Origin: a virus
Taxonomy: Duplodnaviria > Heunggongvirae > Uroviricota > Caudoviricetes
DNA length: 23,815 nt
IMG/VR virus record: IMGVR_UViG_2850796239_000008
Strand: one strand, 5' to 3'
The position numbers and the translations under genes were made by a program. Numbering within the stretch: the first letter of the stretch is position 1; each line of letters starts with the position of its first letter. Shown here piece by piece: positions 15,450 to 21,849 of this stretch. Under the pieces are notes generated by a model. It saw only the letters and a list, made by a program, of their open reading frames with translations, was not told the DNA's origin and ran no database searches.

Positions 15450-16044
15450 GTCATTCGGTATTTATTACGCACGGAATGATCCGGCAGGTGCCCATCAGAA
15501 GGGTGGCAAACCTTTCTCCCCGGATTCTTTTGTTGTCGTTGAGGTGGGCGCGGAGGCTTCTGTTTCCACCGTCCCCGTGGAGCAGGGGGCTTATACCACC
15601 TTTAATAAAATCCAGAGATCGCCGGAACTGCATGTGACTTTCACTGTAGAGGGGTGGACGGCCTTTTCCGGATCCGTCCCGAACCTGACAAATTTTTCCA
15701 CCACCTCGCGGACGAATGTGCTGGAAACGCTTGAAAGGATGCGTACCACGGCAGGACTCTACGATATTGAGACGCCGGACAAGACATGGACATCCTGCGA
15801 CCTTGTGAAATATGACTACCGAATGCGAAGTAATAATGGTCCGACCTTACTGACGGTTACTGCGGTATTTCAGACCGTAATGAATACAGGAGAGGTGTCA
15901 GTGGGAAGTACGGATAAGTCGTCTCCCACGGACAACGATAAAGCAAAAGGGGCCGCATCGGTTAAAACGCAGTCAGTTACGGCGTCGGTGACACAACCGT
16001 CAGACGCTGACAGACGAAGCGCCACGAACAGGGGGATCACCTGA
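15450..16044 (+). pseudogene. 3' fragment of a phage tail/baseplate-region gene, truncated at its 5' end by IS1
   Basis: Open frame runs from inside IS1 to the stop at 16042-16044 with no own start or RBS; followed by coupled structural genes. Confidence 0.6.
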
Positions 16045-16346
16045 TGCTGGAAATTGTTTTATCTCCCGTTAAAGCCCAGCAGTTTACGGTGACACTGGGC
16101 GCTCAGGTCTGCACCATTCGCCTGAATCAGCGTACTACGGGGATGTATATCGATATCATTGTTAATGGTGAACCGTGCCTGTATGGCGTGCTGTGTCTGA
16201 ATAATAACCGGATTGTCCGGTACGGATACCTGCCGTTTCAGGGGGACCTGTTTTTTACCGACACGGAGGGGAATAGTGACCCTGACTGGCGGGGGCTCGG
16301 ATCCCGGTACCGGCTCTACTGGCTGTTACCTGAGGAACTGATATGA
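16044..16346 (+). CDS. Phage tail/baseplate-associated small protein, 100 aa
   Basis: ATG overlaps the preceding stop (TGATG); part of the tightly coupled structural operon. Confidence 0.5.
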
Positions 16347-17212
16347 GCTACAGACAACGTAAAATAACGGTGGAGTTCACTCTTTCAGACGGACGAACGT
16401 TTGGTAATGGCCAGGGCAATATGCTGACCATTACCGACGCAAGCTGTTTTGCCAGTATTGGCGTATATGGAGGGGTGGCTGGTACACAAATCACGCTGTA
16501 TATCTGGGGAATGTCACCGGCGCATATGACGAATTTAAGCTGGCGCGGTGTGTGGCGACAGGAGCAGAGTACCGCAAATAAAATGCGGCTGTGGGCCGAC
16601 GGGCGGCTTATTTTTGAAGGTGATATTACTGATGCATACGCCGACTACAACCAGGCGCCGGATATTCCGCTCATTCTGACAGGACAGATTCATTTTAATC
16701 TGCGTAATCAGCCGGCGGCAGATTTCAGCGCAAAGGGCGATGTTGCGGTTGCAGATATTATCCGTGCGCTGGCGTCAACTGTCGGGCTTGGATTTGAAAA
16801 CCAGGGGGTCAGCCGCAGTCTGTCTGACCCGCATTTTTCCGGTAATGTTGTACAACAAATGCTGGATGTCGCTTCAGCCGCCGATATTAACATTGATCTG
16901 GGGAATGTGGAGAAAGTCACCATCTGGCCGAAAGGGCAGAACCGGAATATTCCGCCGGTACTGATTTCGCCGGATCACGGACTGACTGGCTATCCGGTTT
17001 ACACCATGACCGGACTCAGCGCCACCACGATATTCTGCCCCGATCTCTTTACTGGCAGGCCAGCGCATCTGGAATCGTCACTGCCTGATATGACGGGCGA
17101 TTATACGATCACAGGGGTGATACACACCATTACTTCGCGAACCGTGGGCGGTCCGTGGAGTTCCAACTGTACCATGATGAGGGCTGAAGAAAATGGCACA
17201 ACCACTCAGTAA
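16343..17212 (+). CDS. Phage baseplate-region protein, 289 aa (hub-like position upstream of the spike gene)
   Basis: ATGA overlap with the upstream gene; sits immediately before the spike gene. Functional assignment is by position only. Confidence 0.55.
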
Positions 17213-17869
17213 CCCGACAGACGTGAACAGCGAAATCAATGCACAGGACTTTATGCTGCGGCAGTTTCTCGGACGTCATGCGTTTATCACTCTGGGACGG
17301 GTGGTAGCCGTGGAAGAGGGATTTATTGAGGCCCGACCGATGGTAATGGGCGTTGCAGCAGACGGTTCCCCGGTTGAACATGAGGTGATTTATAACATTC
17401 CCGTATGGCGACTACAGGGGGCGGTAATGCGGTGATTATGCCGCCACATGTGGGGGATATCGGTTTTCTTGCCATCTGCGATCGGGATATCAGTGCGGTA
17501 AAAGCCACGCGTCAGGCTGCGATGCCGGGATCAAAGCGTACCCATAATTATGCTGATGCCATCTGGCTGGGTGGCGTGCTCAACGGTGATCCCGTCCAGT
17601 TTGTGGTATTTGATGACAACCAGATACGGATTGTATCTCCCTGGAAAGTGGAGATATCCGCGCCTGAGGGTGTGATTAATGCGCCGAAAAGCTTCACCGT
17701 TAATTCACCACAAATTGCGCTGAACGGCGATACCGCCGTCAGTAAGGGGCTTGACGTTACCGGGCAGTCCAGGCTTTCCGGCGGTTCGAACATCGGGGGT
17801 ATTGATTTTGGAAACCACGTTCACGGCGGCGTTGAGTCCGGCGGCTCAACCACGCAGGGACCCCGGTAA
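17193..17869 (+). pseudogene. Baseplate spike protein (P2 gpV / Mu gp45-like), split by a frameshift in a G5 run
   Basis: ORFs 17193-17435 and 17405-17869 are contiguous if one G is added to GGGGG at 17417-17421 (...NIPVWRLQGGGNAVIMPPHVGD...); C-terminal HVHGGVESGGSTTQG resembles the spike apex motif. Confidence 0.7.
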
Positions 17870-17881
17870 ACAGGAGAAAAC

Positions 17882-18237
17882 ATGCAGTCACGATCACTTC
17901 TTCTTGACACCGGGACATGGGATATCCTGCTTGATGATACCGGAAATCTTGCCATTACTGATAATCCCCATGCGGTAGCTCAGGATGTGGCGTGTGCGTG
18001 CAGTACTTTTCTGGGGAGTGCTGGTACGACTCAACGGCTGGCATACCTTACTGGCCACGCATCCTCGGACACTGGCCCGGCACACAACTGGTGAATGCCA
18101 CTCTGCAACAGGAAGCACTTAAACTGCCGACCGTGAGCGCCGCTGTCTGCCAGGTCACAGCTGATCAAACCCGGACAGTAACAGGTGTGCTGCGTATTAC
18201 AGATACCAATAATGACATTTTTACGGTATTGCTATGA
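17882..18237 (+). pseudogene. Baseplate wedge protein (gpW/gp25-like), split by a frameshift in a G4 run
   Basis: ORFs 17882-18094 and 17992-18237 join as ...ACACSTFLGECWYDSTAGIPYW... if one G is added at 18013-18016; strong RBS CAGGAG before the ATG at 17882. Confidence 0.65.
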
Positions 18238-19475: not shown

Positions 19476-19476
19476 C

Positions 19477-20082
19477 GTGCAGAATGTGGCTGCCACTGTG
19501 CTTGCGCAGTATGCTGCCAGCCCCCGACTCAATGCCCTCATTAACAGCTTTAACGCAGCGCTTTCCCCCGACAGTTTTATCAGTGATTTTTATGGTCTTA
19601 TCTGGAACATCGATACCGCAGAAAAGTATGGTCTTGATGTCTGGGGAAAGATTGTGGGTGTCAGTCGCCGGCTGACGGTAAAGGACGATTTTAATTACCT
19701 GGGCTTCAGCGAGTCTAGGATGGACACCCCGGTAATGGATGATCCCTGTCCGTTTAATCAGGCACCGTTTTACAACGGAAAATCGGATACCCGGACTGTT
19801 GACCTGTCTGATGCTGTATACCGGCGGCTGATACTGATGAAAGCCATGTCGAACATTACTGACTGTTCCGTTCCGGATATTAACCGGATGCTGAGATTTA
19901 TGTTCGGAAAAAAACGCCGGGCTTATGTTCTGAATAATGGTGGATTGAGGATGAGTTACATCTTTGAGTCCGCGCTCTCGTTGGCAGAACTGGCGATTAT
20001 CCAGTCGTCGGGTGCACTGCCATCCCCGCCGGGTGTTTATGTTTCAGTAGTTTTAAAGGAGTCCCGTAATGAAGGCCAGTGA
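19477..20082 (+). CDS. Baseplate/tail protein I-like, 201 aa (GTG start)
   Basis: GTG at 19477 with AGGAGG at 8-nt spacing; position between the J-like gene and the fibre gene. Confidence 0.6.
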
Positions 20083-21301
20083 TAAACCCCGCCAGCTGGC
20101 GGTCCCCTTTGCGAGTACCGGAGATAAAAACCGTATCCCGGACAAGGCGACACAGCAGACCAGAGAGAGCGGTAATGCTGCGTATGATTCAGGTTTTCCT
20201 CCGGTGACCATGACAGCGGTCTCAGCGGGAGGTATACCGCCACACGGCAAGGATTTTAACGGTCTGATGTACGATATTACCGCAGCAATACGGTTCGCCC
20301 AGGCTGGCGGTTTGTACACGTATAATGCCGGTTTTGCGGGGGCCATTGGTGGATATGCAAAAGGAGCCATTCTCGCCGGAGTCGCAACAACAGCGGTCTG
20401 GCTGAATACCACAGACGATAACCTGACCGATCCTGAAGGCTCCGACAGTGCGGGCTGGGTAAATCTTCTTGAGGATCCGAAAAGGATATTCCTGCGGCAG
20501 AAGAACAATCTGTCAGACCTTCAGAATAAAGGGACGGCACGGGATAATCTTCAGGTTTACAGTAAAGAGCAGTCAGATCAACGCTATGTTCATCGGGAAG
20601 GCGATACCTTGTCCGGTGGACTTACTTTTGAAAACGACTCAACCCTTGCCTGGATTCGAAATACTGACTGGGCAAAGATTGGTTTTAAAAATAATGCCGA
20701 CAGCGATACTGATTCATACATGTGGTTTGAAACAGGTGACAACGGCAATGAGTATTTCAAATGGAGACACCGCCTCGCTGGCGGCCGGGTTAAAGACCTG
20801 ATGAATCTCAAATGGGATACACTAAATATTCTGGTTAATGCCGTCATTAATGGTTGTCTTGGAATTGGTACGACGAATGCGTTAGGTGGAAGTTCAATCG
20901 TTTTAGGAGATAACGATACCGGGTTTAAACAAAATGGCGATGGTCTGCTTGATGTTTATGCGAATGGACAGCGTGTATTTCGTTTCCAGAATGGCAGTAT
21001 CCAGAGTAATAAAGCTGTAAACGTTACAGGACGGGTAACACCGTCAGACTACGGAAACTTTGATGCCCGTTACCAGCAGCGAAATGGTGGCGTGCAGGAT
21101 GTGCGGTATGGTTATGAAATGTATTACAACCCTGGCAGCAACACCGTTTCATGGACGTTTCGCTCACCTTCGGGACACGGGCTGTCAGGGATATCGATAT
21201 CGGATACCGGCCGTAACTCAGCGGATAACGTCAACGGTGTGTATTACCGACCGCTGCAAAAACTGATTAATGGCACCTGGTATAACGTAGCGAGTATTTA
21301 A
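20069..21301 (+). CDS. Tail fibre protein (gpH-like), 410 aa
   Basis: AGGAG RBS; conserved fibre N-terminus followed by a Gly/Asn-rich distal region ([37 protein letters not shown]). Confidence 0.8.
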
Positions 21302-21303
21302 CA

Positions 21304-21849
21304 ATGTTGCATTTAAAAAATATTACTGCGGGTAATCCGAAAACCGTGGAACAATATCAGCTGACAAAACAATATGATGTCACCTGGCTTTTTTCGGAAG
21401 ACGGAAAAAACTGGTATGAAGAGCTGAAGAATTTCGCCAGCGACACAATTAAAATAACTTACACCGGAGACGGTCGCGTGGTGTGGGTCGGTAAGGATGT
21501 GACAGGCATTGAACCCCGTAACGCCAGTGTTATTGAAGTTCCTGATATTACCGCCAACCGCCGCATTACCGCGCCGGGTTACTGGTTTTACCGCAATGAT
21601 GAATTTGTCTTTGACTACAGACTCAAAGCGGAAGATGAGCGTGATGCCCTTCTGGCTCAGGTCAGTGCCCGGACAGGGGAATGGGAAGAAGACCTGCTGC
21701 TGGGGTTAATCAGCGACGAAGATAAAGAAAAGCTGAAAGCCTGTCGTATTTACGCGAAATCACTGCAGGCGATGGATTTCAGTGTCATCACAGATAAAGC
21801 CACATATAACGCCATCAACTGGCCGGAGCGTCCCGATGCCGCAGCTTAA
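21304..21849 (+). CDS. Tail fibre assembly protein (Tfa/gpG-like), 181 aa
   Basis: Starts 2 nt after the fibre stop; C-terminal Tfa-type signature ...AKSLQAMDFSVITDKATYNAINWPERP. Confidence 0.8.
   Translation: MLHLKNITAGNPKTVEQYQLTKQYDVTWLFSEDGKNWYEELKNFASDTIKITYTGDGRVVWVGKDVTGIEPRNASVIEVPDITANRRITAPGYWFYRNDEFVFDYRLKAEDERDALLAQVSARTGEWEEDLLLGLISDEDKEKLKACRIYAKSLQAMDFSVITDKATYNAINWPERPDAAA

Follow-up and report, generated by a model that had tools for sequence, protein, structure and literature searches.

The viral DNA of IMG/VR record IMGVR_UViG_2850796239_000008 (Caudoviricetes; 23,815 nucleotides, hereafter the window) carries lambdoid early genes followed, at 15450-21849, by a block of baseplate and tail-fiber genes, and the locus raises the question of which tail lineage this block comes from and how the two halves came to stand side by side. 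The initial annotation had described a mosaic prophage in which lambdoid immunity and replication genes were joined to a P2-type V-W-J-I-H-G module. The analysis presented here, in which gene identities, collinearity, a deletion, and insertions are established, leads to another answer: the window is very probably the decayed remnant of one ordinary temperate phage with an E217/Pam3-type contractile tail, located at the ttcA/Rac site of a chromosome of the Shigella/enteroinvasive Escherichia coli (EIEC) type. The element is a member, degraded by insertion sequences (IS), of a known kind, the lambdoid temperate phages with an E217/Pam3-type contractile tail. Over 15.6 kb, the window shares 100% identity with CP026875.1 (GCA_002950355.1).

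The order spike, W-like, J-like, I-like, fiber, and fiber-assembly protein reported in the initial annotation proved to be real, with open reading frames (ORFs) at the positions collected in Table 1 and profile matches far beyond chance. In Pfam scans, where truncated or frameshifted genes were represented by intact copies from a near-identical genome, all ORFs of 15450-21849 except the W-like one gave matches above the curated cut-offs. No Pfam family was matched by the W-like protein in our own scan; its Sheath_initiator label and the Phage_Wedge1 label of the second wedge protein are precomputed Pfam assignments on identical proteins in other assemblies. An NCBIfam scan gave no useful family for most proteins. 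The three genes upstream of the spike, which had been said not to fit the P2 R/S pattern, indeed do not: the profile annotation of 15450-17212 that had been proposed yields Dit_like, Pam3_gp18, and E217_GP41, and these genes, left unplaced before, are now explained as a Dit-like probable tube initiator truncated by IS1, a baseplate plug, and a hub.

By profile and fold comparison, the 289-aa protein is a hub of the E217 gp41/Pam3 gp19 type and by homology would be a trimer. It scores 32.6 bits against a Pfam cut-off of 27 and belongs to PHROG 196, and the profile of its homologs matches Pam3 gp19 (1.2e-6) and phi92 gp137 (3.7e-4) in the PDB. Moreover, its AlphaFold2 (AF2) model, with a predicted local distance difference test (pLDDT) value of 78.9, retrieves in Foldseek the hubs of phiTE, Bas63, E217, and Pa193 with template modeling (TM) scores of 0.67-0.74 (8e-17 and TM 0.73 for E217 8eon_E) and, more distantly, Mu gp44 (2e-10, TM 0.63), the pyocin R2 hub, and T4 gp27. 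The plug reaches 80 bits against a cut-off of 24 and shows 52% identity to ORF073 of Pantoea phage PA-1. Comparison with PDB sequences also connects the spike with E217 gp43 (3.6e-9) and, through its C-terminus, with Mu gp45 (7.5e-5); the sheath initiator with Pam3 gp21 (1.5e-7) and E217 gp34 (1.3e-6); the J-like wedge protein, 57% identical to PA-1, with E217 gp44 (1.8e-25); and the DUF2612 wedge protein with XM1 gp17 (1.9e-7). In a family scan, this last protein is neither Tail_P2_I nor Mu_Gp48. The product of the first gene of the block, whose N-terminus was removed by the IS1 event, scores 28 bits with Dit_like (cut-off 24) and in relatives is encoded directly after the tape measure, which is the position of Pam3 gp17; this protein is probably the tube initiator.

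In Pam3, the tube initiator (gp17), plug (gp18), hub (gp19), spike (gp20), sheath initiator (gp21), two wedge proteins (gp22 and gp23), and fiber (gp24) are encoded in this order (PMC9942802). The module of the window matches gp17-gp24 gene for gene, which makes the gene cut by IS1 a probable tube initiator, the 100-aa protein a plug, and the 289-aa protein a hub. Besides gene order, the likeness to the Pam3 baseplate (PDB 7YFZ; PMC9942802) includes the Pam3_gp18 plug, the gp21-type initiator, and the gp19-type hub profile. However, sequence identity is very low, and Pam3 is a lytic cyanophage with a disulfide-linked wedge and fibers, whereas the window has an enterobacterial mosaic fiber of the P2/Mu type, a dedicated chaperone, a second fiber set, a temperate lambdoid lifestyle, and a different host. 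The Pseudomonas phages E217 and Pa193 (PDB 8ENV/8EON, 9B45; PMC11456595) are the closest solved relatives for J, spike, and hub and also match the sheath initiator. They differ from the window in being lytic Pbunaviruses, in having additional 'ripcord' proteins and a wedge 2 of 500 aa, and in their partly non-contiguous baseplate genes; with 201 aa, the wedge 2 of the window is nearer to XM1 gp17 than to the E217/Pa193 protein.

At the DNA level, a megablast search of the phage collection with the module found the fiber/chaperone segment and IS1 alone, and phage relatives were found at the protein level. The seven core proteins, and with them the sheath, tube, chaperone, and tape measure of relatives, match PA-1 (31-61% identity; 40-61% for the core) and Klebsiella phage ST899-OXA48phi17.1 (31-56% for the core) in collinear order. 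None of the isolated phages in the collection exceeds 60% protein identity to the module, apart from the sheath initiator (61% to PA-1), which at the sequence level sets the element in a distinct lineage. The closest sequenced phages are PA-1 and the temperate Klebsiella phages ST899-OXA48phi17.1, ST15-VIM1phi2.1, and RCIP0114, all with collinear tail genes. PA-1 is a complete temperate phage that combines cI, cro, cII, O, a DnaB-like helicase, NinB/NinG, an N-like gene, and an integrase with the same tail. These phages differ from the window in their distal fibers or tailspikes, cargo (acyltransferase, not sit/ipaH), integrase, and host.

Closer relatives are prophages, and EIEC CFSAN029787 contains two essentially complete members of the window's family. 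The copy at yfaA runs through int, xis, RecE/Gam, repressor/YdaT, replication, Q-region genes, four tRNAs, and lysis to terminase, DUF1073 portal, head, neck, DUF3383 sheath, tube, SLT-domain tape measure, baseplate, fibers, and ipaH; the copy at ttcA, the Rac site, is built in the same way, with sitABCD, uspF, and ompN at its end. Since the complete PA-1 and both CFSAN029787 prophages have it, the combination of a lambdoid early region with a myovirus tail is, judging from these genomes, a natural one. In complete relatives, the neck terminator, sheath, tube, chaperones, tape measure, Dit-like protein, plug, and hub are encoded directly 5' of the spike, and the upstream genes of the intact copies are labeled E217_gp27, E217_gp28, tail terminator, E217_gp31_N (sheath, formerly DUF3383), and E217_Gp32 (tube). 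The DUF3383/E217_gp31-type sheath and the E217_Gp32-type tube, present in relatives L008-L010, L013-L017, and L020, are deleted from the window. The RefSeq annotation of relatives already carries essentially correct names for the module.

The deletion is located at the IS1 element that separates the two halves. The window maps collinearly onto the CFSAN029787 ttcA prophage on both sides of IS1, with window position 14681 corresponding to composite position 28193 and 15447 to 50483, so that ~22.3 kb are missing and IS1 stands in their place. The segment lost contains the late regulators, tRNAs, and the lysis, packaging, head, neck, sheath, tube, and tape measure genes. Also, the flanks of IS1, AATTTTCTT and GTCATTCGG, show no target-site duplication, whereas IS600 has one, and this argues for an IS1-associated deletion or a recombination between two IS1 copies rather than a simple insertion. 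The junction between lambdoid and baseplate genes is then best described as an IS1-associated deletion inside one prophage and not as an evolutionary recombination joint. In this sense, the mosaic of the initial annotation holds as a joining of lambdoid and baseplate modules, but their direct junction is a deletion scar of ~22.3 kb. To the left of IS1, an ORF starting at 14595 runs into the element (14595-14681). In CFSAN029787, DUF977 is followed by a hypothetical gene of 118 aa, of which this ORF has kept the first 29 codons; the truncated ORF marks the left edge of the 22.3-kb deletion.

Two smaller lesions, and IS600 within the helicase gene (11488-12751), had not been noticed before. With respect to every relative examined, a 1-nt deletion in a G-run at 17416 splits the spike into ORFs 17193-17435 and 17405-17869, and another in a G-run at 18012 splits the W-position gene into ORFs 17882-18094 and 17992-18237. 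Compared with CFSAN029787, the window has five 1-nt indels, of which four are deletions in G/C runs of at least 5, at 57 (a C-run in ttcA), 17416, 18012, and 23036 (second fiber); the fifth, 14389, lies at an alignment-block edge beside the IS2 site of CFSAN029787 and is probably an alignment artifact. Because of this homopolymer pattern and the hit in the housekeeping gene ttcA, the frameshifts suggest sequencing errors in CP026875.1 rather than real pseudogenes. Whatever their status, the loss of ~22.3 kb of late genes leaves the prophage defective, and the baseplate block is a non-functional relic, because IS1 replaced these genes and IS600 splits the helicase. Decay takes another course in the siblings L001 and L002, which retain sheath fragments, tube, and tape measure and have lost most of J and DUF2612, both intact in the window. 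That decay differs from strain to strain argues against selective retention of the baseplate block.

An origin of the block as a P2-type (Peduoviridae) V-W-J-I-H-G baseplate/fiber operon recombined into a lambdoid prophage, as in the initial annotation, is highly improbable. The functional order from spike to chaperone does equal that of P2, Baseplate_J is common to both, and the spike has the GpV Apex motif together with a sub-threshold match to TIGR01644 (phage_P2_V). Moreover, residues 174-410 of the fiber share 53% identity with gpH, window positions 20600-20998 (~400 bp) match the DNA of P2 H at 85% identity, and the chaperone is 41% identical to gpG. However, the C-terminus of gpH (2e-80) and gpG (6e-42) are the only tblastn matches to P2 (NC_001895); the spike, W-like, J-like, and I-position proteins give E values of 0.67 or worse, and the hub likewise has no match. 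When the P2 proteins V, W, J, I, and D and gp44-48 of Mu were scanned against the same Pfam and PHROG libraries, the only common family was that of gpJ (Baseplate_J, PHROG 6). Spike, W, second wedge, and hub belong to separate families in the window, P2, and Mu lineages (P2 W is PHROG 43, the W-like protein PHROG 120), and those of the window differ from Phage_base_V, GPW_gp25, Tail_P2_I, and Phage_GPD. The layout differs as well. In P2, R/S precede V, the hub gene D and X, U, T, FI, and FII lie elsewhere, and sheath, tube, E/E', T, U, and D form a separate FI...D operon downstream, whereas relatives of the window have sheath, tube, tape measure, plug, and hub 5' of the spike. As for the fiber, its residues 1-133 are 41% identical to the PA-1 fiber and residues 127-272 57% identical to Mu S; a PA-1-like N-terminus followed by a P2/Mu-like C-terminus fits a module-specific anchor fused to an exchanged receptor-binding end, and the swapping of distal fiber ends between unrelated phages is well known. 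The P2-type label is refuted at the level of family membership. A contractile-tail baseplate/fiber module was correctly recognized, and its likeness to P2 is confined to the fiber C-terminus and the assembly protein. A tail module of the Mu/SfV type, as found in Shigella serotype-converting myophages with lambdoid early genes and Mu-like tails, is also very unlikely. Mu and SfV have their genes in the same general order (tape measure, hub proteins, spike, gp46, gp47, gp48, fiber, chaperone), and SfV in addition combines lambdoid early genes with a myovirus tail. The hub fold (Mu gp44, TM 0.63) and the spike tip (the weak gp45 match of 7.5e-5) are distantly similar, and the chaperone is 46% identical to Mu U'. 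Nonetheless, in the comparison with P2, Mu, and SfV that the initial annotation had proposed, made here by tblastn, the seven baseplate-core proteins match none of the three (best E 0.014, not collinear), nor do the sheath fragment, tube, chaperone, and tape measure of the relatives. Among the window proteins, no Pfam match was found to the Mu families DNA-circulation gp43, Gp44-like hub, Phage_Mu_Gp45, GP46, and Phage_Mu_Gp48, and all core proteins but J belong to families other than those of Mu and SfV. Instead of a DNA-circulation (gp43) protein, the module has a Pam3-type plug and, in the relatives, a DUF3383/E217_gp31_N sheath, and E217, Pa193, phiTE, and Bas63 are structurally closer than Mu.

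Two further explanations concern the origin of the element as a whole. The lambdoid and baseplate halves could come from two unrelated prophages fused through recombination between IS1 copies, as the absence of a target-site duplication at IS1 would allow. These genomes hold several related prophage copies and many IS elements, and one relative, L001, is really rearranged, with a ttcA left flank and ipaH3-pphA on the right. Such a fusion is nonetheless most unlikely. At ttcA, CFSAN029787 has a single uninterrupted prophage that aligns with both halves of the window, at 97-99% identity with 1-14681 on its left and at 99% identity with 15447-23815 on its right. Also, in the source genome, the window is followed on the right by sit genes and by genes for a Usp protein and a porin, as the prophage of CFSAN029787 is by sitABCD, uspF, and ompN. 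Recombination between sibling copies of the same family may have taken part, which would leave the identity of the element unchanged. It is hardly credible, on the other hand, that the block is a domesticated tailocin or extracellular contractile injection system and not a phage remnant. A baseplate and fiber block without head genes does resemble R-type bacteriocin loci, but the window has no sheath, tube, or tape measure, the first gene of the block is cut by IS1, complete relatives have terminase, portal, and capsid genes, and decay varies by strain, with J and DUF2612 deleted in L001 and L002 and intact here. The evidence thus favors the remnant of one lambdoid phage with an E217/Pam3-type tail.

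Several points weigh against parts of this reading. The tube-initiator role of the Dit-like protein draws on two things only, the modest Pfam match of 28 bits and gene position. Its AF2 model, built on an 18-sequence alignment, has a pLDDT of 46 and was unusable for a fold search, and searches of the PDB with the single sequence and with a profile gave no meaningful match, returning only designed helical repeats through the low-complexity C-terminus. For the plug, the PDB sequence matches to E217 gp33 (E 0.007) and Pa193 gp34 (0.006) are marginal. On the sequence alone, the frameshifts in the spike and sheath-initiator genes may be real or may be errors. Moreover, what was observed here of the E. 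coli/Shigella phage is its genes and no virion, and each of the 'complete' copies has one frameshifted gene, the tape measure in L020 and a head-tail gene in L009, so that extant copies may not be inducible.

Based on these comparisons, the intact phage would be organized as int-xis, an early-left operon of the RecE/Gam type, repressor/Cro/YdaT immunity, initiator and DnaB-type helicase, Q-region genes, and tRNAs, followed by lysis, terminase, portal, and head genes and then by a contractile tail of the E217/Pam3 kind. Region 15450-21849 is the distal part of its tail operon, with the Dit-like protein, plug, hub, spike, sheath initiator, two wedge proteins, fiber, and chaperone, and then the second fiber set. 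By homology with Pam3 and E217, the hub-spike complex would nucleate the baseplate in the intact virion, the tube initiator and plug would dock onto it, and the sheath initiator and wedges would then encircle this core and bear the fibers. In the wedges, the J and DUF2612 proteins are predicted by homology to form (J)2-(DUF2612)1 heterotriplexes. Binding of the fibers, whose receptor-binding end would have been swapped with P2/Mu-type fibers, would trigger sheath contraction. The tube-initiator role of the Dit-like protein, this wedge stoichiometry, and the order of assembly are what we infer as probable from the homologous systems.

Table 1. Features of the 23,815-nt window, beginning with the baseplate and fiber block.
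Feature	Position	Strand	Basis and remarks
Dit-like baseplate protein, 3' 198 of 236 codons	15450-16044	+	Pfam Dit_like 2.4e-6; PHROG 1830 9e-75 (intact copy)
Baseplate plug, 100 aa	16044-16346	+	Pfam Pam3_gp18 (PF22479) 1.7e-22
gp27-type baseplate hub, 289 aa	16343-17212	+	Pfam E217_GP41 (PF22759) 6e-8
Central spike, 225 aa when intact	17193-17869	+	Pfam N-terminal OB domain PF18352 5.7e-8 and GpV Apex motif 1.1e-5
Sheath initiator, W/gp25 position, 118 aa when intact	17882-18237	+	PHROG 120 6.8e-36; precomputed Pfam Sheath_initiator label
Baseplate_J wedge protein, 413 aa, intact	18234-19475	+	Pfam Baseplate_J 5e-12; PHROG 6
Second wedge protein DUF2612/Phage_Wedge1, 201 aa, intact, P2 gpI position	19477-20082	+	Pfam DUF2612 2.7e-65; PHROG 587
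Mosaic tail fiber, 410 aa	20069-21301	+	tblastn and DNA comparison
Tail-fiber assembly chaperone, 181 aa	21304-21849	+	Pfam Caudo_TAP 8.8e-27
Second fiber set	21836-23815	+	Pfam; gene calls in L012
phage_tail_N/StfR-like fiber	21836-23113	+	1-nt deletion at 23036
DUF4376 protein	23192 to window end	+	cut by window end
IS1, 768 bp	14682-15449	-	no target-site duplication; flanks AATTTTCTT and GTCATTCGG
IS600, 1264 bp	11488-12751	+	within helicase gene; 3-bp GTT target duplication
ttcA, 3' part	1-480	-	chromosomal left flank at Rac attachment locus; annotation of matching genomes
intR integrase (532-1767) and xisR excisionase (1769-2008)	532-2008	-	ORFs; RefSeq annotation of L001, L019
Rac-type early-left operon	2084-7172	-	
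DUF1187/RalR-like ORF	2084-2296	-	early-left operon
AAA ATPase	2323-3420	-	early-left operon
Gam-like protein	3426-3725	-	early-left operon
RecE-family exonuclease	3700-5640	-	early-left operon
YdaE-like protein	within 2084-7172	-	early-left operon
Rha/Ash regulator	6333-7172	-	early-left operon
Immunity region	8461-9695	both	Pfam
HTH_3 repressor, divergent	8461-8937	-	Pfam
Cro-like HTH_3 protein	9034-9276	+	Pfam
YdaT-family protein	9273-9695	+	Pfam
Replication block	9786-14537	+	Pfam
HTH_36/DnaD_N initiator	9786-10541	+	Pfam
DnaB-type helicase, split	10504-11490 and 12614-13201	+	Pfam; intact 467-aa copy in L001, L019
53-aa ORF	between split helicase and DUF1627	+	
DUF1627	13368-14129	+	Pfam
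DUF977	14130-14537	+	Pfam

The lambdoid character of the left half, as the initial annotation had it, is borne out by annotation and Pfam. The integrase and excisionase genes lie at one end, a divergent repressor/Cro-like pair is accompanied by a regulator of the YdaT family in the CII position, and an initiator and a DnaB-type helicase follow, an arrangement of the lambdoid (Rac-type) kind; Q-region genes are present in the relatives only. The ttcA site, intR/xisR, RalR/RalA, RecE, and the YdaT-type immunity genes are shared with the Rac prophage of E. coli K-12, which is not known to have E217-type tail genes. The RalA small RNA (2088-2266, +; Rfam 207 bits) lies antisense to the DUF1187/RalR-like ORF (2084-2296, -), and the RalR-like/RalA pair is a Rac-type type I toxin-antitoxin. 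Also, the 5' part of the Rha/Ash regulator ORF contains a C4 antisense RNA (6933-7020, -) and an isrK Hfq-binding RNA (7045-7121, -), an arrangement that resembles the immI module of P1/P7 and the IsrK antirepressor control module of Gifsy-1. In the immunity region, the stretch 7393-9264 diverges from the otherwise 97-99% identical Rac-locus prophage of CFSAN029787 and matches L001 and L002, which points to different immunity alleles in sibling prophages. L002, a prophage between yebY and pphA in E. coli O121, differs in its integrase and excisionase and matches the window from 2034 onward. At the other end of the window, the pair formed by the phage_tail_N fiber and the DUF4376 protein follows the first fiber set in relatives too, and the stretch 21815-22369 is hypervariable among otherwise near-identical copies.

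In E. coli, the baseplate block is present in only 9 of 5,426 complete genomes, and those inspected carry ipaH. Public assemblies have the exact J protein in 230 blocks, one NCTC genome having it twice, and homologs are common in Salmonella enterica at 82-85% identity and occur in Serratia, Xenorhabdus, and Photorhabdus at 52-61%. Sibling prophages occupy at least five loci, namely ttcA, yebY-pphA, yfaA, bio/ybhB, and smpB (L008-L011, L014, and L018-L020). Cargo lies just past the second fiber set at four of them: the copies at yebY-pphA, yfaA, and bio carry ipaH, and the Rac-locus copy carries sitABCD; in the smpB copy (L014), none was seen. L001 has ttcA/intR on its left and ipaH3-pphA on its right, and such mixed flanks imply that two sibling prophages of that strain took part in a chromosomal rearrangement. 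In the draft assembly L013, positions 14279-16291 contain an IS1 fragment after the E217-type module, followed by Mu-type baseplate remnants (Baseplate_J_C, Phage_Mu_Gp48) and fiber/chaperone genes, which means that both tail types coexist in such genomes.

The relatives are also like the 'PAI sit' (PAI, pathogenicity island) and 'ipaH islands' of Shigella/EIEC, in that sitABCD or ipaH lies at their right end (PMC7545054; PMC4226921). Several of the ipaH islands and the sit island appear to go back to this one phage family. It is tentatively proposed, as a possibility that is somewhat more doubtful than not, that one family of lambdoid phages with E217/Pam3-type tails brought the ipaH effectors and the iron/manganese transporter sitABCD into Shigella/EIEC, with sibling copies serving as substrates for rearrangement. 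If this were true, the window would be one decayed copy of an ipaH/sit-delivering phage family present at five or more loci. The presence of ipaH and sit in prophage-like islands is already known; that these islands are a single myophage family of the E217/Pam3 tail type may not have been stated before, and on the tail type of these prophages the literature searched gave general statements only, describing them as prophage-like islands.

Finally, the main gain is a correct annotation, in which the 'P2-type' label is replaced by that of a simple baseplate of the E217/Pam3 type, and its significance beyond this is small. The point where lambdoid and baseplate genes meet is to be taken as an IS1 deletion scar and not as a recombination hot spot. 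For the family, the finding means that enterobacterial pathogens host a temperate lambdoid lineage of the 'minimal myophage' tail, structurally studied so far mainly in lytic phages, with near-complete copies found in the EIEC strain CFSAN029787.

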